A DNA stretch of 35,735 nt from an uncultured Clostridia bacterium (GTDB taxonomy: Bacteria > Bacillota > Clostridia > Oscillospirales > Ruminococcaceae), in NCBI GenBank assembly GCA_944387515.1, contig CALXFL010000001.1, positions 1-35,735 on the forward strand, in the 5' to 3' direction. Below, piece after piece: positions 603-32,456 of the stretch (its first letter is position 1; every line of letters starts with the position of its first letter). Below the pieces are notes generated by a model that was not told the DNA's origin, ran no database searches, and was given only the letters and a program-made list of their open reading frames with translations. Position numbers and translations under genes: made by a program.

Positions 603-631
603 TTACCAAATACATCTATTTGTGGTACAAT
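603..631 (+). promoter_or_regulatory. Putative sigma-A promoter reading into the tandem RNA-like array
   Basis: -35 TTACCA (603-608), 17-nt spacer, extended -10 TGgTACAAT (623-631). Lies just downstream of the MATE stop and upstream of the first hairpin (638-661). Confidence 0.45.
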
Positions 632-824
632 AAGGATGCAGCAGGGAGTTTTCTCTGCTGCCATTCCCTCCTTTCGTCTGCAGGATGTAGATCCTGTGGC
701 AATGTCCTTCTTTTGGCAGCCCCAGCGGAAGGGTGCGGCGTCGCCGCCACCCAAACCTCCTGCATTTTATGGCTCCTTCCGGCTGGCCGGCTGTACAGGA
801 AGCATGGAGTTTGTTCCGTAGTTT

Positions 825-856
825 GCCCCGCTTTTCAAAAGTGGGGCAATTTTTTT
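825..856 (+). terminator. Intrinsic terminator, array unit 1
   Basis: Stem GCCCCGC (825-831) / GTGGGGC (841-847), followed by AATTTTTTT (848-856). Confidence 0.75.
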
Positions 857-1023
857 GCGAAAAAGGAAAAGAAGTAGGGTTAACAAGACATCAGGAACTT
901 CTTCCTGATAGTTTCCTCCTTTCTTTGACAGAAGATTTCTTCTGTCCTACCTCCTAAAGTTCCCTGAAAGGCGGCGTAAGCTGCAAAAGACCTCCTGCAT
1001 TTCTGGCTCTTTCAGGACATTGG

Positions 1024-1066
1024 CCCCGCTTCTGGTTTGTTGCCCGGAAGCGGGGTGCTTCTTTTT
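1024..1066 (+). terminator. Intrinsic terminator, array unit 2
   Basis: 12-bp stem CCCCGCTTCTGG (1024-1035) / CCGGAAGCGGGG (1044-1055) with one G-U pair, followed by TGCTTCTTTTT. Confidence 0.75.
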
Positions 1067-1231
1067 GCGAAAAAGGAAAAGAAGTGAGGTTAACAAGGCA
1101 TCAGGAACTTTTTCCTGGTATACCTCCTTTCTATGGCAGAAGATTTCTTCTGTCCCTCCTTCTTCAGTTCCCTGGAAGGCGGCGTAAGCTGCAAAAGACC
1201 TCCTGCATTGTTTGGCTCTTCCAGGATTCTT

Positions 1232-1275
1232 GCTCCGCTTCTGGTTTGTTGCCCGGAAGCGGGGCGCTTCTTTTT
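1232..1275 (+). terminator. Intrinsic terminator, array unit 3
   Basis: Stem GCTCCGCTTCTGG (1232-1244) / CCGGAAGCGGGGC (1253-1265), followed by GCTTCTTTTT. Confidence 0.75.
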
Positions 1276-1398
1276 GCGAAAAAGCGCAGGAGGCGGGGTT
1301 AACAAGGCACATGCATTCTCCTTCTCTCAGTTTGGCGGAAAGCGGCGCAAGCCGGAAAAGACTTCTCTGCATTGTTTGGCTCTTTCACCCGACGAACG

Positions 1399-1441
1399 CC
1401 CCGTTTCCGGTGTATTTTCCGGAAGCGGGGTGATTCTTTTT
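1399..1441 (+). terminator. Intrinsic terminator, array unit 4
   Basis: 12-bp stem CCCCGTTTCCGG (1399-1410) / CCGGAAGCGGGG (1419-1430), followed by TGATTCTTTTT. Confidence 0.75.
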
Positions 1442-1614
1442 GCGAAAAAGGAAAGGGAGCAGGGTTAACAAAGCATCAGGAAGTTATTTCCTGGCATTTC
1501 TCCTTTTTTGCAGAAGCTTCTTCTGCCCCTCTTCAGCCTGATGGAAAGCGGCAACTGCCAAGCGGCAATTGCCGCATGAGATTTCCTGCGTTTTTGGCTT
1601 TTTCATCAGGCTGA

Positions 1615-1659
1615 CGCCCCATTTCCGACCCGTTGTCTGGAAGTGGGGCGATTTTTTTT
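1615..1659 (+). terminator. Intrinsic terminator, array unit 5
   Basis: 12-bp stem CGCCCCATTTCC (1615-1626) / GGAAGTGGGGCG (1639-1650), followed by A plus T8 (1651-1659). Confidence 0.8.
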
Positions 1660-1801
1660 GGAGAAAGGAAGAAAACAAAGCGAATATTTCGTTTAAAAAA
1701 ATGGAATTTTTATGACCTTCTCTGCGAAAAATAGCTGGAAAAGCGGTTTTCTCAACCAGAAGCTGCGGAGTTGTTTCGCGGGTTATGAAAGGAGAATCCC
1801 T

Positions 1802-4970: not shown

Positions 4971-5825
4971 ATGATTGTCTACAACCACTATGAAGGGCGT
5001 CCTTCCGTTTCTCTGTTTGCAGGTCCTACCGGCAGCGGAAAGACCCAGATCTGGCGCGCTCTTCAGCAGGAATATGGCAGCCAGAACATCATCATTCAGG
5101 ATGCCAGTGTCCTGTCAGCCGAAGGCTGGCGGGGCGGCAACAAGATTTCCACCATCTTTCGCAGCCTGAATGCAGACCAGCGGGAGCGGATCATTCTGGT
5201 GTTGGACGAATGTGACAAGCTGCTGGAGCCCATGCACGGCGCCAACGGCACCAATTACAGCGATCTGATGCAGAACCAGCTGCTGCGGATGTGCGATCAT
5301 GATACCCTCTTTTTTGGCAGTGAAGACAGTCAGTCCAGTATGACCATCAGCTGCGCCCGGGTATCAGTGGTGATGCTGGGTGCCTTTGCCCGGCTCACCG
5401 AGCAAAAAAGGAAAGACAGCAGTTGTATAGGCTTTGGGCGTAATCCGGAATTTTCTCAAAACAGTGTCACAGAGCTAACCACGGAAGATCTGATCGATTA
5501 CGGTATGAGAGCCGAGCTGGCCGGATGGCTGGACCGGATCGTTTGTATGGATCTCCTTTCCATCCGAGATCTGGTCCAGATCGGCAAGCAGGAAGTGACC
5601 CGGCTGGAAGAACAGCTGCATATCCGGCTCCGGATCGCACCGGATGTGCTGATTATGCTGGCCCGGGCGGCTGTGGGCAAGGGATTGGGCGCCCGTTGGC
5701 TCAAGGCCCGGCTGGGACAGCTGCTGGACGATCGGCTTTATGACGATCCCGATGCCGACAGCTACGAGATTCTTTATGAGCCGGCTGATGCGGATGCCCG
5801 GCGGCAGGCTTGCTGTATGGACTGA
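4971..5825 (+). CDS. ClpX-like AAA+ ATPase without a zinc-binding N-domain; homology extends upstream to 4890, so the true 5' end is unresolved
   Basis: Walker A GPTGSGKT and Walker B ILVLDECDK. Pore-loop-like AEGWRGG (compare ClpX AGYVGED). CIGFGRN (compare the ClpX GIGFGAT IGF loop). EDLIDYGMRAELAGWLDRIV (compare EDLIKFGLIPEFIGRLPVV). GLGARWLK (compare TGARGLR). Codons 4890-4970 encode ...DDGIIGQDAAVRAAAMIVYNHY, matching ClpX [20 protein letters not shown], but contain no in-frame ATG, GTG or TTG. Confidence 0.8.
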   Translation: MIVYNHYEGRPSVSLFAGPTGSGKTQIWRALQQEYGSQNIIIQDASVLSAEGWRGGNKISTIFRSLNADQRERIILVLDECDKLLEPMHGANGTNYSDLMQNQLLRMCDHDTLFFGSEDSQSSMTISCARVSVVMLGAFARLTEQKRKDSSCIGFGRNPEFSQNSVTELTTEDLIDYGMRAELAGWLDRIVCMDLLSIRDLVQIGKQEVTRLEEQLHIRLRIAPDVLIMLARAAVGKGLGARWLKARLGQLLDDRLYDDPDADSYEILYEPADADARRQACCMD

Positions 5826-5856
5826 TTTTTGGATTTTCAGGAAAGGAGCAAAGAAA

Positions 5857-8289
5857 ATGGACGGATATGACGCATTGCGCCTGACAAAGGGAGGCGGTCT
5901 CACCGCCGGAACCATGAAACCAGCGGAGGATGGATTGCATCTGTTCCTTGGACTGGGCGGCACCGGCCTCGAGTGTCTGCGCACCCTGAAGACTCGGGCC
6001 CGGGAATGGCTGGCTTTGTCAGAACTGGCAGAAGCTCCTTTTTCTCTGTTTGGAATCGATACCAACGATTACAGCAGAACAACAGGTGAATTCCTGTTGC
6101 CCCTGGAAGAGCAAGAGTTTCTCTGGCTTCGTTATCCCGGCAATTTGGGGCCTCACCTGCGTGACAGGACGGATCTCGCCTGGCTGCAGTGGAATGAGAT
6201 TCCCGATCTGGAGACTGGCAGGCCTGTTTGCCGGCAGCATAGCCGCTTTTTTCTGATGGAACATTGGCAGGAGCTGTCTGACCGCCTTCTGGATCAGTTG
6301 CAGAAGCTTCGAAGCAGAGCGCCGCAGCTTCCCATTTTTGTCCATGTCATTACCAGTATGAGTGGCCTTGCTGGTTCTGGTTGCTTTCTGGATCTCTGCT
6401 ATCTGCTTCGGAAGCTGGTGGAGATGTATGGAATGGAAAGAGTGTTTCTTTGTGGCTGGTTCTTTTTGCCCGAAACGATTCTCTCCCGAATTCCGAATAG
6501 CGATGTATCCAGTTTCCGGTTTGTCTCCATAAACAGCTATGCTGCTCTTCGGGAGTTGGATTACTGTATGAATCTTCCTGAGAATGGCAGCAGCTTTACC
6601 CAGGTTTATAAAAATGGAATGTCTGTGCCCTGGGACAGACCGCCGGTGGATTTGGCCTGTCTGGTGGGATTGCCTGAGCAGGATCCCTATCGGGGGTATC
6701 GAAAAGCCATGGAAAACCTCATGCAATACCTGATGGGACAACTGCTTTATCCTGGCTTTGCAGGGAGAATTGCCGATTTTCAGCAGAGAGCCGGACAGGC
6801 CTGGCAGAACAGAACAGATGGCAGCCGTCCGGTTTATGGCCTGCTTCAGAGCAATGCTGCCATGGCGCCGTTACGGGAGGTACAGACCAATCTGGCAGCG
6901 CTGCTTTTTGAGAAATGGAACCCTCTGTTGTCTCACCTCCCTGCCAAACAGGACGTGGAACAGCTTATCTGTAGGGCCTTCGGTAGCCAGCATATCGGTG
7001 ATCTTTACCAGACGTTGTATTTCCGGCTTACCGAGGGAGCGGATGACGGCTATATTCCTTATCCTGACAGCTGGAAAGATGTTCGGAAAAACGGCAGCAG
7101 CCATTTTCTCCAGCACTACAAAGATCAGACTGCCAACAAGCTGAGCCGGATCACCAGAAATCAGGAGAGCCTGCTGGATCCTGGCAATCCGGATTCCCTC
7201 ATCGCCAGAATCTGTCATCAGCTGGACAATGCCGTCATGGATCTGGACCAGGGCCCTGAGTACGTCTGGCAGACTTTGGAGATATGTCATGGTTACAATC
7301 TGCTGACTGTTGTGGACCGCCTGATTCTGGAGAATACCGAACGGCAGAGCCAGAACGCCGCCCAGCATAACCTCCGTCACATGGAGTATGAAAAGGCCAG
7401 ATCTGTCTTTGACGGTGCCACCGGCCTTTTCTCCCTTCCCAGCAAAGCGTTTGCAGAATATGAGTTTTTCCTGCGTGCGCTGGAGTGGCACGCTTACTGT
7501 ATGGGCGCCTATGAGGTCATGAACAGGCTGCTTTCACATTTCAGAAGCCAGTTGATGGAAGAAGGGGAACGTTACAGAAAACTGTCCAGAATGACGGAAC
7601 AGCTGAGGAAAACCTTTGAAGAGAACCGGCTTCTGCTGCGCTGCATCAACCCCAGGTATCTGCTGCCTGCTCAGTGGCATGTGATGGATCAGCTGTGTCC
7701 GCAGCTGGAGCAGGCGGTGGAGCAGGCAGACCAAAAGAAACTGTGGCAAACGTTCATCGCAGGGCTGATGTCAAGGGATACCAGCTGTCCAGACAGCGTG
7801 TTTCAATGGGTAATTACCTGTATACAGGAATCTTTTCCGACATTTTTCAGTCAGGGCTTTGCTTCCTGGCTGTACCCGCTGTGCAGCGCATCGCCTGACG
7901 GACCGCTGTCTGTTGTTTCACTGGCGAATGTCTGCAGTCTGGATGAAAGACCATTTCAAAGACAGCAGTATATGGGGTGTCACCTTTACGAGGAGCCTTT
8001 CAACGACTGGCGGAAGCTGCCGCCTCTTACGCCCCTCAGCAGGTTGTCTGGCGATATGAAGAAATTGCTGGAAGAAGAGATCCGGCGGGTGACCGAGCTT
8101 TTTCAGGAGGGGAGAAGCCAGGGCATCATCCAGCCGGACGGCCGTTTGACCGGTACCCGTACGATACTGGATGGCAGAGGTGTACCTGAAGCGCAGGAGC
8201 AGATCCTGCTGGACAGTTTCTGGCAGGCGCCGGCTTTGCAGCAATGGGTAGAGGAAGAACTCCAAATAAGAGACAAACGGGCTGATTAA
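5857..8289 (+). CDS. Giant tubulin-like (Tubulin_2/FtsZ-like style) protein A, 810 aa, degenerate nucleotide-binding signature
   Basis: RBS GAAAGGAG (5841-5848) then ATG at 5857. G1 is LFLGLGGTG. The signature position reads ITSMSGLAGSGCF instead of GGTGSG, and the GAG loop is replaced by ETGRPVCRQ. A long alpha-helical remainder is paralogous to protein B, for example DDGYIPYPDSWKDVRKNGSSHFLQHYKDQTANKL versus DDGYTPYPDGWKYVRENGNSRFVQHYTDQTANKL. Confidence 0.85.
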   Translation: MDGYDALRLTKGGGLTAGTMKPAEDGLHLFLGLGGTGLECLRTLKTRAREWLALSELAEAPFSLFGIDTNDYSRTTGEFLLPLEEQEFLWLRYPGNLGPHLRDRTDLAWLQWNEIPDLETGRPVCRQHSRFFLMEHWQELSDRLLDQLQKLRSRAPQLPIFVHVITSMSGLAGSGCFLDLCYLLRKLVEMYGMERVFLCGWFFLPETILSRIPNSDVSSFRFVSINSYAALRELDYCMNLPENGSSFTQVYKNGMSVPWDRPPVDLACLVGLPEQDPYRGYRKAMENLMQYLMGQLLYPGFAGRIADFQQRAGQAWQNRTDGSRPVYGLLQSNAAMAPLREVQTNLAALLFEKWNPLLSHLPAKQDVEQLICRAFGSQHIGDLYQTLYFRLTEGADDGYIPYPDSWKDVRKNGSSHFLQHYKDQTANKLSRITRNQESLLDPGNPDSLIARICHQLDNAVMDLDQGPEYVWQTLEICHGYNLLTVVDRLILENTERQSQNAAQHNLRHMEYEKARSVFDGATGLFSLPSKAFAEYEFFLRALEWHAYCMGAYEVMNRLLSHFRSQLMEEGERYRKLSRMTEQLRKTFEENRLLLRCINPRYLLPAQWHVMDQLCPQLEQAVEQADQKKLWQTFIAGLMSRDTSCPDSVFQWVITCIQESFPTFFSQGFASWLYPLCSASPDGPLSVVSLANVCSLDERPFQRQQYMGCHLYEEPFNDWRKLPPLTPLSRLSGDMKKLLEEEIRRVTELFQEGRSQGIIQPDGRLTGTRTILDGRGVPEAQEQILLDSFWQAPALQQWVEEELQIRDKRAD

Positions 8290-29970: not shown

Positions 29971-30080
29971 CAGTATGGCTATTTGAGCAGGAATATGGAT
30001 TTTTCGATTATCTTTTAACAGATGAGCAAGATTGTTTCATAAATCCGCAAAAATCGAGCAATAAATTGGTTTCCCCGTCC

Positions 30081-30109
30081 TTGCCAAAGCAATCAAATAC
30101 AGGTAGAAT
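30081..30109 (+). promoter_or_regulatory. Putative sigma-A promoter for the oxidoreductase operon
   Basis: TTGCCA (30081-30086), 17-nt spacer, TAGAAT (30104-30109). Confidence 0.5.
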
Positions 30110-30159
30110 AAAAGTAGAGAGCAAAGCTCAAAAGATGGAAACAGAGGAGAATTAAAATC

Positions 30160-31203
30160 ATGAAGAAAACGTACGGCGTTGTATTGATCGGATGCGGCCA
30201 TATCGGAAAGGCCCATATCAGCGATATTTATTTTCGGGAAGAAATCGATATCATCGGCGTCGTGGATCTCCAGCCGGAGCTTGCGAAAGCCTTTGCCAAA
30301 CGGTTCGGCGCCAAGGAATGGAGCACCGATTACCGGGATTTTCTGAACCGCCCCGATGTGGATATCGTCATCATTGCCACCTATGTGGCTACCCATCTGT
30401 CCATCCTGCGGGAGTGTCTGGCTGCTGGTAAGCACGTCCTCTGTGAAAAGCCCATCGCTTCCAGCCTGGAGGAGGGCGAGGAGTTCTACCATCTGGTTAA
30501 ATCCCATCCCGAATGCCGGGTACAGGTGGCTCATATTCTCCGATACAACGAAACCTACCGCCGGGCCGCTCAGATGATCCATGACGGCATGATCGGTGAG
30601 GTGCGTCTGATCCGGATGGCCCAGAACCATCATATCATGAACCGGGAACGGTACGCCACCCTGCTGCGGGATTGCCCGCCCATTGTAGATTGCGGCGTTC
30701 ATTATGTGGATGTCATCCGCTGGTTTACCGGTATGGACATTGTAACCCTCAGCGGTGTCGGCTGCCGGATTGGCGACGTTGCCCCCGAGGACACCTACAA
30801 CTACGGCCTGCTGACCATGCAGCTGGAAAATGGCGCTTCGGCCTTTTATGAAGCTGCCTGGGCTGACACTACGGCATCCAGCAACCTGAAGGAATTCATC
30901 GGCGATAAGGGCCGCATCCGGCTGGTGCTTCAGGAATACCGCTTCCAGGACCACGAGGAAGGGGATCTGATCGAGTACTACGATGCCGTGGAGAATGTCT
31001 ACCACACCATCAACATCCGCTCCAAATACAAAAATATGTGGGGACAGCTTCAGGGCCTGATCCGCAGCATCGAGACCGGCGTCGAAACCTTCCCCACCAT
31101 CGACGATGTATACATTGCTTTCCGGCTGGCGCTGCTGGGCGACCAGGCCATCAAGGAGGAGAAGTTTGTCAACCTCCGCTCTGACCGGGAGCTGCTGGAC
31201 TGA
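30160..31203 (+). CDS. Gfo/Idh/MocA family NAD(P)-dependent oxidoreductase
   Basis: RBS AGAGGAGA then ATG at 30160. N-terminal Rossmann motif VVLIGCGHIGKAH and the family EKP motif (VLCEKPIA). Confidence 0.9.
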   Translation: MKKTYGVVLIGCGHIGKAHISDIYFREEIDIIGVVDLQPELAKAFAKRFGAKEWSTDYRDFLNRPDVDIVIIATYVATHLSILRECLAAGKHVLCEKPIASSLEEGEEFYHLVKSHPECRVQVAHILRYNETYRRAAQMIHDGMIGEVRLIRMAQNHHIMNRERYATLLRDCPPIVDCGVHYVDVIRWFTGMDIVTLSGVGCRIGDVAPEDTYNYGLLTMQLENGASAFYEAAWADTTASSNLKEFIGDKGRIRLVLQEYRFQDHEEGDLIEYYDAVENVYHTINIRSKYKNMWGQLQGLIRSIETGVETFPTIDDVYIAFRLALLGDQAIKEEKFVNLRSDRELLD

Positions 31204-31205
31204 GT

Positions 31206-31727
31206 ATGGCGGCGCTGAGAAAGATGCTGGGCAGTCCGGAGGATCCGCTCTGCCGGGAGATGATGGCGGTGATCGATACCCAGTCCCTTCAGACATTGGC
31301 TGCCTGGGCGGCGGATACAGCACTCCAGCGGTATCTGCCGGTATATGAAGCGGCAGGCGGAGAACCAGCTCTTCGCCAGGAGGCGGAGGTATGCCGGGAA
31401 TTGATTGGGGCAGGTGGGAAGCCTGCGGCACTGGCTCCTCACCTGCGGGAGCTGACCCGGTTGGCCCGGGAGACCCAGGGCGCGGCAGCGCAGGCAGCGG
31501 CCCGGGCGGTATCGGTGGCCTGCGGGGTGATGCGCTCTCCGGGGAATGCATTAGGGTTTGTGTTCTATGGAGCGGCGGCCATGGCTTACAGCCAGGCCGG
31601 TATTCATGAAACCAGTGAGGTTTACGACGGGCTGGCCCGGCAGGAGTGGGCAGCGGTGTTGGATTCCCTCAAAATGGCTGCTTTGCCGGATGAGGAGAAT
31701 CCGGTTAAAATTGATTGGAACTGTTAA
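31206..31727 (+). CDS. All-alpha hypothetical protein; from memory resembles a Firmicutes family sometimes annotated as putative immunity (Imm5-like) protein
   Basis: ATG lies 2 nt after the upstream TGA (coupled). Ala/Leu-rich helical sequence ending ...ENPVKIDWNC. The family assignment is recollection only. Confidence 0.6.
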   Translation: MAALRKMLGSPEDPLCREMMAVIDTQSLQTLAAWAADTALQRYLPVYEAAGGEPALRQEAEVCRELIGAGGKPAALAPHLRELTRLARETQGAAAQAAARAVSVACGVMRSPGNALGFVFYGAAAMAYSQAGIHETSEVYDGLARQEWAAVLDSLKMAALPDEENPVKIDWNC

Positions 31728-31730
31728 AAA

Positions 31731-31772
31731 ATCGGCATGGCTTCGGCTGTGCCGATTTTGCTTTGGTTTTTT
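31731..31772 (+). terminator. Intrinsic terminator
   Basis: Stem ATCGGCA (31731-31737) / TGCCGAT (31750-31756), followed by TTTGCTTTGGTTTTTT. Confidence 0.6.
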
Positions 31773-31815
31773 ATAGGGGAAGCTGAAAGAGCAGACTTGC
31801 TGTACCGGACAGAGA

Positions 31816-31844
31816 TTGCGCTTTCTATTCGTGCGTGGTATAAT
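31816..31844 (+). promoter_or_regulatory. Putative promoter with extended -10
   Basis: TTGCGC (31816-31821), 17-nt spacer, TGgTATAAT (31836-31844). Confidence 0.55.
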
Positions 31845-31892
31845 TTTCTTGTCTGACAAGCCGGTTTGCCGGCAGCAAAAGGAGAGATCAGC

Positions 31893-32456
31893 TTGAAGCT
31901 CAATACCCTGGGCATTGCCCATACTTTTTTGGAGCAGCACATCACCCCTGGCAGCTTCTGCATCGATGCTACCGCCGGGCGGGGCCGGGATACTGCCTTT
32001 CTCTGCCGGCTGGTGGGGGAGCAGGGGAAAGTGCTGGCCTTTGACATCCAGCAGGAGGCCGTGGAAGCCACCCGCACCCGTCTGAAGGAAGAAGAGTTGG
32101 ACGCCATCGGAGAGGTGGTACTGGACAGCCATATCCATATGGATCAGTATGCCCAGCCTGGAACAGTAGACGCTGTGGTCTTCAACTTTGGCTACCTGCC
32201 CGGCGGGGACCATCGGATTTTTACCCGCCCCGAGACCAGCATTCCCGCTGTGGAGCAGGGGCTTTCCCTGTTACGGGAGGGGGGCGTGCTCTGCGCCTGT
32301 GTCTACCATGGCGGCGACACCGGCTATGAGGAACGGGATGCCCTGATGGACTATTTTGCCACCATTGACAGCAAGGTCTATACCGTTCTGGTCTGCGACT
32401 TCCGCAACCGGCCGGGGGATCCGCCCATTGCCGTCCTTATCTGGAAGCGCACCTGA
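31893..32456 (+). CDS. Class I SAM-dependent methyltransferase, YtqB (putative rRNA/tRNA methylase) family
   Basis: TTG at 31893 lies 6 nt after AAAGGAGAG. FCIDATAGRGRDTAFLCRLVGEQGKVLAFDIQQEAV parallels B. subtilis YtqB ...[31 protein letters not shown] (recalled). Confidence 0.75.
   Translation: MKLNTLGIAHTFLEQHITPGSFCIDATAGRGRDTAFLCRLVGEQGKVLAFDIQQEAVEATRTRLKEEELDAIGEVVLDSHIHMDQYAQPGTVDAVVFNFGYLPGGDHRIFTRPETSIPAVEQGLSLLREGGVLCACVYHGGDTGYEERDALMDYFATIDSKVYTVLVCDFRNRPGDPPIAVLIWKRT

Follow-up and report, generated by a model that had tools for sequence, protein, structure and literature searches.

CU-rich and C-rich small RNAs (sRNAs) of Gram-positive bacteria block initiation by pairing with ribosome-binding sites (RBSs). 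Here we describe an array of five tandem paralogous units in a stretch of 35,735 nucleotides (nt) from an uncultured Oscillospirales bacterium (contig CALXFL010000001.1, positions 1 to 35,735; the whole stretch is termed the window). The array lies between a matE efflux-pump gene and the genes of an anti-invader conflict system. LhrC copies, a close parallel among Firmicute sRNAs, are about half as long as a unit of the array and each has its own regulated promoter. LhrC1-5 of Listeria monocytogenes bind Shine-Dalgarno (SD) sequences through CU-rich regions (PMC5880928). The array would resemble LhrC1-5 as multicopy Firmicute sRNAs with several single-stranded CU-rich regions, predicted AG-rich SD targets and intrinsic terminators (PMC5880928), but it has a promoter at the first of its five units only and contains extra conserved helices (P3/P3a) and a candidate helix P0. 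There is no sequence or Rfam similarity between the two.

CcsR1-4 are four tandem homologous anti-SD sRNAs (CCUCCUCCC) that have one promoter and form part of the 3' or 5' untranslated region (UTR) of a neighbour gene (PMC8034643). These 'cuckoo' RNAs of Alphaproteobacteria are like the array in their tandem anti-SD units, single promoter and location at loci prone to duplication and rearrangement (PMC8034643, PMC4615179). However, the CcsR motifs occupy the loops of hairpins and the units depend on RNase E for their release, whereas each unit of the array has its own terminator. The CcsR RNAs also come from another phylum, show linkage to a DUF1127 gene and have no homology to the array.

Repeated terminator-bearing modules between one promoter and an operon are known from the thrZ leader of Bacillus subtilis, which consists of three tandem T-box attenuators, and tandem glycine or thiamine pyrophosphate (TPP) riboswitches are further tandem modules. 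To our knowledge, five copies exceed the known cases of this kind. Unlike them, the array has no match to an Rfam riboswitch or T-box, belongs to a family in which one member is without a downstream gene and is not kept upstream of homologous operons. In type III toxin-antitoxin systems (ToxI/ToxN) a promoter, tandem RNA repeats and a terminator precede one or more defence genes, and the terminator sets the RNA-to-protein ratio; a ToxN-family endoribonuclease processes the repeats, which measure ~34-36 nt. A type III antitoxin RNA was rejected for the array, which has units of 166-225 nt and no ToxN/AbiQ-type gene among the Pfam matches nearby. It is plausible that the array represents tandem sibling sRNAs, each capped by a terminator and all fed by a single promoter; the family is new to Rfam.

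Organization of the Array

The array lies in the 1.2-kb gap between the stop codon of the MatE gene (576) and the ATG of the vWA gene (1802). At 632-1660 it consists of five direct-repeat units on the + strand, termed u1 to u5 (Table 1). Every unit is closed by a terminator-like hairpin of 12-14 base pairs (bp) and -18 to -28 kcal/mol followed by a T-run, and the array region contains 13 terminator-like sites compared to the 3.4 expected from shuffles. The array terminators function on the + strand only.

A motif scan of positions 400-2000 gave one sigma-70-like promoter on the + strand, which places the start of u1 at ~638, at the base of its 5' hairpin; none was found for u2-u5. A preliminary description of the locus had claimed a good promoter before the first unit only, which was borne out by the scan, and its coordinates for units, terminators and motifs proved accurate on re-check. 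With a promoter, a 5' hairpin at the predicted start, an unpaired CU-rich stretch and a terminator, u1 has the look of a classical sRNA gene. By motif it is alone in having both a promoter and a terminator of its own, as u2-u5 and a solo copy found elsewhere in the genome have no sigma-70-like promoter. The matE gene has no terminator of its own (576-603), and the first terminator downstream of it is that of u1; u1 may therefore also arise as the matE 3' UTR.

The full-unit plan was found in u2, u3, u5 and in u4 of a related strain, L095. It begins with an invariant purine-rich leader, GCGAAAAAGG..., which is followed by GGUUAACAAGGCA. Next are hairpin P1, a CU-rich stretch (C/U)CUCCUUUCU, hairpin P2, a second CU-rich stretch, the long helix P3 around hairpin P3a and an unpaired A(C/U)CUCCUGCAUUGUUUGGCU, and finally the terminator. 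The P3a loop is a GNRA loop in u2-u4. Unit u3 follows the same plan as u2, while u4 of the window is a deletion derivative without P1 and P2 and with a weakened P3. P3a of u5 holds a 14-nt duplication (1546-1573). Because the promoter occupies the place of the leader, u1 has none; the covariance model R1, which was built without u1, matches u1 from model position 34, the start of P1, to position 209 (E 6e-6).

The palindrome CTTTTTGCGAAAAAG is perfectly conserved between each terminator U-run and the following unit, and the spacing of GCGAAAAA and GGTTA is unchanged in the solo copy. This palindrome may serve for processing, as an operator for a protein or as a promoter element of unrecognised type.

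Selection on RNA Structure

Each unit was found to fold better than its own shuffles (z -2.6 to -6.6, with -5.2 for u1). The helices were assessed in 16 unit sequences, i.e., paralogues plus strain variants, with slid partners as controls. P1, P2, P3/P3a and the terminators were paired in 95.1% of the alignment cells compared to 44-51% for the slid controls, and six pairs, all in P3 and the terminator, had changed on both sides. The sequence of P3 differs from unit to unit (CCUGAAAG/CUUUCAGG, CCUGGAAG/CUUCCAGG, GGCGGAAAG/CUUUUCCGCC, and AGCCUGAUG/CAUCAGGCU). No start codon, frame or length was conserved among the open reading frames (ORFs) that cross the units. Since the helices persist through different sequences and the ORFs share neither start nor frame, selection acts on RNA structure and not on ORFs, in agreement with the preliminary description. 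The compensatory changes given there stand for P3. The pair CAGGAT/ATCCTG and CAGGAA/TTCCTG does not, because the former is P2 of u1 and the latter P1 of u2, u3, and u5; they are located on opposite sides of the CCUCCUUUC block and are not positional homologues.

RNAalifold also paired the two most conserved blocks of the unit, GGUUAACAA.GCA and UGC.AUUG.UUUGGCU, in a helix of 13 positions, termed P0. This is a candidate long-range helix that would be pseudoknotted with P3 or an alternative to it. Nine of the 11 counted pairs were invariant, and the single variant, a C to U in u3 of strain L096, keeps a G-U pair.

ORFs of 33-141 amino acids (aa) cross the units on both strands and some have been deposited as hypothetical proteins, which would fit units encoding small proteins or type I toxin-antitoxin pairs. 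However, these ORFs run through the terminators, the frame is not kept from unit to unit, given periods of 209, 210, and 166 nt, and the 'homologues' of a minus-strand ORF retrieved from 5.8 and 1.84 billion proteins were the same locus in other assemblies only. Coding units are therefore hardly credible. A small ORF or leader peptide was rejected for want of a conserved start codon or frame, and a minus-strand reading with GGAGG as RBSs because the peptides are unconserved and the terminators are on the + strand only. GCUCUUU, which looks like an rrn boxA, was rejected as such, being the covarying 3' strand of P3. No tRNA or tmRNA was found. Spurious minus-strand ORFs over the array (947-1372) are present in public collections as 'hypothetical proteins' of 73-160 aa (P0241-P0244); several database entries of this kind are thus artefacts of the array.

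CU-Rich Stretches and the 3' End of 16S rRNA

CCTCC was found eight times on the + strand of the array compared to 1.2 times in shuffles, and GGAGG once; the copies are paralogous and not independent. ACCTCCTTTCTA is located at 1122-1133 and ACCTCCTGCAT at 755-765, 990-1000, and 1198-1208. All units and the solo copy contain (C/U)CUCCUU, which is unpaired in the minimum free energy fold of u1. The CU-rich stretches pair with the strong SD sequences of the window at -14 to -20 kcal/mol. The idea that they target the vWA RBS in particular was dropped, since the pairing shows no specificity.

The preliminary description had also proposed that the anti-SD blocks mimic the order and spacing of the 16S rRNA 3' end. 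The units would then be decoys that imitate UAACAAGG-helix 45-GAUCACCUCCUUUCUA and titrate whatever recognises the 16S end, for example a maturation RNase, an Era-like GTPase, a ribotoxin or, globally, the SD regions of mRNAs. In this role they could regulate the conflict system downstream or serve it as an RNA antitoxin. A promoter, repeated RNA, leaky terminators and a conflict operon do recall type III toxin-antitoxin loci. In local alignments to the last 55 nt of 16S rRNA, taken from a general Firmicute consensus and not from the source organism, u3 (0/500), u1 (0.006) and u2 (0.012) scored above shuffles, but u4 (0.14) and u5 (0.5) did not. Order and spacing in u3 match those of the 16S end. 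GGCAGCCCCAGCGGAAGGGUGCGGC of u1 aligns to GGUAGCCGUAUCGGAAGGUGCGGC of helix 45, and in the fold this stretch is split between P3 and P3a.

Only u3 and u4 have the block TAACAAGG in exact form; u2 reads TAACAAGA and u5 reads TAACAAAG. The block is absent from the u1 RNA, and the solo relative has TTATTTTAT instead and retains little of the partner block. Over 13 positions, GGUUAACAAGGCA is complementary to UGCAUUGUUUGGCU(C), the other of the two best-conserved blocks. As its block pairs with UGCAUUGUUUGGCU in P0, the conservation of TAACAAGG is explained without mimicry. The 12-nt ACCUCCUUUCUA was found in u3 only, where u4, u5, and the solo copy read UCUCCUU. In other strains AUCUCUUUGC, ACCUCUGC or AUCUCCUGC takes the place of the second ACCUCCUGC of u3, next to P3a, and the third CCUCC motif is thus not kept between strains. 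Helix 45 of 16S rRNA has a GGAA loop, whereas the P1 loops are CUUC, CUUU or UUAU. Consequently, UAACAAGG followed by a helix 45-like hairpin with GGAA loop and GAUCACCUCCUUUCU is not conserved across the family, with exact blocks in u3 only. The Rfam small subunit rRNA model gave no match even at E up to 10, and the array is missing from homologous conflict systems. We regard the resemblance as partly convergent, as any SD-complementary stretch resembles the 16S tail, and partly as chance. Taken together, a decoy of the 16S 3' terminus is highly unlikely.

Strain Variation

The window was compared to the 94% identical L095 with the third codon positions of the flanking genes as baseline, 16 of 366 of which differed (4.4%). 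Lower divergence was found for u1 (2/225), u5 (4/219), and the vWA 5' region (1/141). The differences numbered 13/210 in u2, 9/209 in u3, and 14/166 plus a 57-nt indel in u4. In L095, u4 is full-length (223 nt) with P1, P2, and an intact 9-bp P3, and u5 is without the 14-nt duplication. The changes in u2 and u3 were clustered and the 3' half of L095 u2 was identical to u3 (compared with window 963-1020 and 1180-1210), which points to gene conversion between units. L094 has the same P3a/loop variant in u3, and L095 has it in both u2 and u3. The P3a change from GUAA to GUGA, both GNRA, accompanies a change from G-U to G-C, and the structure is kept. Judged from these counts, u1 is under purifying selection, and u2-u4 change by gene conversion and indels.

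Distribution and a Solo Relative

When the whole window was compared to the Rfam 15 covariance models, as the preliminary description had advised, there was no match at gathering thresholds. Matches at E up to 10 were terminator-driven only (anti-hemB, 23.6 bits vs. a threshold of 49.5), and the RsaE model reached 19 bits vs. a threshold of 79 on the wrong strand. None of the Rfam models for riboswitches, T-boxes, antiterminators, LhrC, RsaE/RoxS or the small subunit rRNA 3' end reached its gathering threshold.

The source is an Oscillospirales bacterium, and its MatE protein is 86% identical to one of 'Candidatus Merdivicinus' and 72% to that of Angelakisella. The matE-array-vWA locus was found in five further metagenome contigs that were 94-99.7% identical. 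The matE loci of related species lacked the array and had a real convergent gene in its place, and homologous vWA-Tubulin_2 loci also lacked it, with short, ordinary upstream regions. Pattern scans of IMG/VR, of GTDB species genomes (junction motif) and of JGI metagenomes (loop motif) gave none or chance single matches, and BLAST against plasmids and phages found nothing. From these searches, the array is so far known from one species-level lineage only.

The solo relative is shorter than the units. It has GCGAAAAAAGG and GGUUA at unit spacing, a P1 hairpin whose changes are compensatory (AGUCAGAAAG/UUUCUGACU), the UUUCUCCUUUUUUG of u5 without any change, and a terminator of its own. It is flanked by the guaB terminator and by the bidirectional terminator of a convergent Sm_multidrug_ex gene, and no sigma-70-like promoter was found for it. 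Downstream are only terminators and the convergent gene, i.e., no gene on the same strand to be regulated in cis. Because the solo copy sits between convergent genes, the unit family is not purely a leader of the operon downstream of the array.

Could the units be a structured intergenic repeat of the BOX, RUP or Correia type, possibly mobile, that was amplified by unequal crossing-over and merely supplies terminators? The array and the solo copy are two loci within ~55 kb of known sequence of the source genome. The unit ends are inversely complementary (GCGAAAAAG ... CUUUUUGC), which creates the junction palindrome, and u2-u4 show rapid gene conversion, indels and loss of parts between strains. 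The lack of homologues in other species also fits a repeat. However, every unit preserves P3 through compensatory changes and the solo copy preserves P1, u1 is more conserved than synonymous sites, and the complementarity of the ends is merely that of an A-run with the terminator U-run. No target-site duplication was seen. Neither the remaining 34 kb of the window nor 46 kb of sequence from related species contained another copy. A repeat of this type is therefore rather improbable.

The Downstream Operon

Among the genes downstream of the array (1802 to ~26000), Pfam identified vWA, three Tubulin_2, AAA ATPase, DO-GTPase2, and GAP1-N2. This gene set fits the 'tubulin theme' described for GAP1-N2 GTPase-centric conflict systems of firmicutes (Kaur et al., 2020; PMC7159879), for which neither an RNA component nor terminators are mentioned (PMC7159879). 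As the five terminators are located between this operon and the sole recognisable promoter and the terminator-less matE, they must lower its transcription.

The main rival to sRNAs is a cis-acting leader, in which operon transcription starts at 603-631 and passes five attenuator modules in series. The purine-rich leader of a unit would pair either with the CU-rich stretch (termination) or with the 5' strand of the terminator (read-through), some factor or condition would shift the balance, and the series of five would give tight, switch-like control. In a variant of this model the array gives constant strong attenuation and insulation from matE. The array is co-oriented with vWA and directly upstream of it, no sigma-70-like promoter was found between 1660 and the vWA ATG at 1802, u2-u5 are without promoters, and unit-like remnants extend into the conserved vWA 5' region (Table 1). 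Nascent-RNA folds paired the leader with the terminator 5' strand in u2, u4, and u5, and in this pairing a strain difference, U875 to C, replaces a U-G with a C-G. However, compared to shuffles the leader-terminator duplex had p = 0.012, 0.49, 0.021, and 0.085 for u2, u3, u4, and u5, so that u3 is not above shuffles and the others are marginal. Five hairpins of such stability would allow almost no read-through. As no gene follows the solo relative on its strand, units are not always upstream of and co-oriented with a gene, and homologous vWA-Tubulin_2 systems do without an array. Neither a riboswitch, T-box or antiterminator match in Rfam nor an antiterminator protein gene among the window genes (Pfam) was seen. 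A cis-acting leader is a serious possibility, but on this evidence an unlikely one. SD sequestration in the vWA 5' UTR was rejected as the fold was no better than shuffles.

A broader idea is that the units are functional 16S 3'-terminus decoys or a repeated sensor/attenuator that couples expression of the GAP1-N2 conflict system to the state of the translation/termination machinery. This is very doubtful; if true, it would be a conflict-system RNA component not described before.

The conflict locus also contains a Sel1-repeat protein and several proteins without Pfam match. The AAA ATPase ORF (4971-5825) and a Tubulin_2 ORF (5740-8289) overlap by 86 nt when counted from the first start codons, and the true start of the latter is probably further downstream. 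At ~30160-32456 on the + strand, annotation of the same scaffold (L097) gives GFO_IDH_MocA, Imm5_like, and a putative rRNA methylase (PF06962). Two long ORFs on the minus strand (30037-31551 and 31551-32213) matched nothing in Pfam and probably do not represent genes.

Table 1. Features of the array and of related sequences. Positions refer to the window except for the solo relative.
Feature	Position	Strand	Sequence or remark
Sigma-70-like promoter	603-631	+	TTACCA-17-TACAAT, TG extension
Unit u1	632/638-856	+	
Unit u2	857-1066	+	
Unit u3	1067-1275	+	
Unit u4	1276-1441	+	
Unit u5	1442-1660	+	
Terminators	823-856, 1023-1066, 1231-1275, 1397-1441, 1615-1659	+	Hairpin plus T-run
u1 P1'	638-661	+	
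u1 single-stranded stretch	664-677	+	UUCCCUCCUUUCGU
u1 P2'	678-699	+	
u1 P3 domain	707-803	+	Encloses P3a and unpaired stretch
u1 P3a	731-752	+	
u1 unpaired stretch	755-766	+	ACCUCCUGCAUU
u1 small hairpin	~804-820	+	
u1 terminator	823-849	+	U-run 850-856
u2 leader	857-889	+	Purine-rich, GCGAAAAAGGAAAAGAAGUAGGGUUAACAAGAC
u2 P1	890-909	+	
u2 CU-rich stretches	912-926, 946-959	+	
u2 P2	927-946	+	
u2 P3	963-970 with 1009-1016	+	
u2 P3a	971-984	+	GUAA loop
u2 stretch after P3a	990-1000	+	ACCUCCUGCAU
u2 terminator	1023-1056	+	Tail to 1066
u3 block before P1	1091-1098	+	TAACAAGG
u3 P1	1100-1119	+	
u3 CU-rich stretch	1122-1133	+	ACCUCCUUUCUA
u3 P2	1135-1154	+	
u3 stretch after P2	~1153-1166	+	CCCUCCUUCUUC
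u3 P3	1172-1179 with 1218-1225	+	
u3 P3a	1180-1193	+	
u3 stretch after P3a	1198-1208	+	ACCUCCUGCAU
u3 terminator	1231-1266	+	
u4 stretch	1316-1328	+	UUCUCCUUCUCUC
u4 terminator	1397-1432	+	
u5 leader	1442-1474	+	
u5 P1	~1476-1494	+	
u5 stretch after P1	1497-1509	+	UUUCUCCUUUUUU
u5 P2	1510-1525	+	
u5 P3	1533-1547 with 1600-1614	+	Long
u5 P3a		+	Extended
u5 terminator	1615-1650	+	
Conserved block	878-890, 1088-1100, 1297-1309, 1463-1475	+	GGUUAACAAG(A/G)CA
Partner block	e.g., 1203-1220, 1367-1384	+	(C)UGCAUU(G)UUUGGCU(C), late in each unit
Junction palindrome	852-866, 1062-1076, 1271-1285, 1437-1451		CTTTTTGCGAAAAAG
Unit-like remnants, vWA 5' region (1660-1748)	1660-1675	+	GGAGAAAGGAAGAAAA, after u5 terminator
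	1723-1748	+	GCGAAAAAUAGCUGGAAAAGCGGUU
Solo short relative	L064 5074-5177 (= L065 2408-2512)		~4 kb upstream of array, same genome

Discussion

The best single reading of the sequence is a multi-copy sRNA family with SD-complementary stretches. We favor this reading because u1, which is under purifying selection, resembles a complete sRNA gene, because the solo copy cannot be a cis leader, because all members keep an SD-complementary pyrimidine stretch between a 5' hairpin and a terminator, and because the arrangement parallels LhrC1-5 and CcsR1-4. We therefore tentatively regard the array as a lineage-specific family of sibling sRNAs with CU-rich, SD-complementary single strands that was amplified in tandem; expression, processing, action in trans and targets are what we infer.

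According to this reading, the sigma-A-type promoter (603-631), together with transcripts that run on from matE, would yield u1 as an RNA of ~219 nt with the 5' hairpin at its start and its end at the terminator 823-856. Units u2-u5 would be made in falling amounts by terminator read-through and possibly be cut at the A-rich junctions, or they may come from a promoter of unrecognised type. Each RNA would carry one to three pyrimidine-rich stretches, (C/U)CUCCUU(U/C), between hairpins, complementary to Firmicute SDs. These would pair with RBSs of mRNAs and thereby block initiation. As a side effect, five serial terminators between the sole recognisable promoter and the conflict operon would result in a very low basal transcription of the latter.

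Several observations weigh against sibling sRNAs. Complementarity to SDs is generic to any SD, and no specific target emerged. The invariant leader GCGAAAAAGGA can pair with the first CU-rich stretch, over 11 bp in u5, and would sequester it if transcribed, and the unpaired probability of the CU-rich stretches in u2-u5 is 0.2-0.64 with the leader included. The third CCUCC motif differs from strain to strain. In the window u4 is decaying, with a deletion and a damaged P3. Expression of u2-u5 and the solo copy is doubtful because they have no sigma-70-like promoter and directly follow strong terminators, and none of the motifs for alternative sigma factors (SigH, SigB, SigD, ECF, and sigma-54, compared by eye) fits the leader. 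Finally, as there are no homologues beyond one species-level lineage, the covariation rests on paralogues and close strains.

That the element is confined to one species-level lineage also limits its general importance. Whether the conflict operon, which is potentially self-harming, is silenced by stacked terminators or regulated by the upstream RNAs is a testable question. The architecture, with one promoter and five paralogous units that are each capped by a strong terminator of their own, is unusual. If expressed, the array would show tandem amplification, gene conversion and decay of sRNAs between closely related strains, and it would add a new sRNA family, not listed in Rfam, to the poorly studied gut Oscillospirales.

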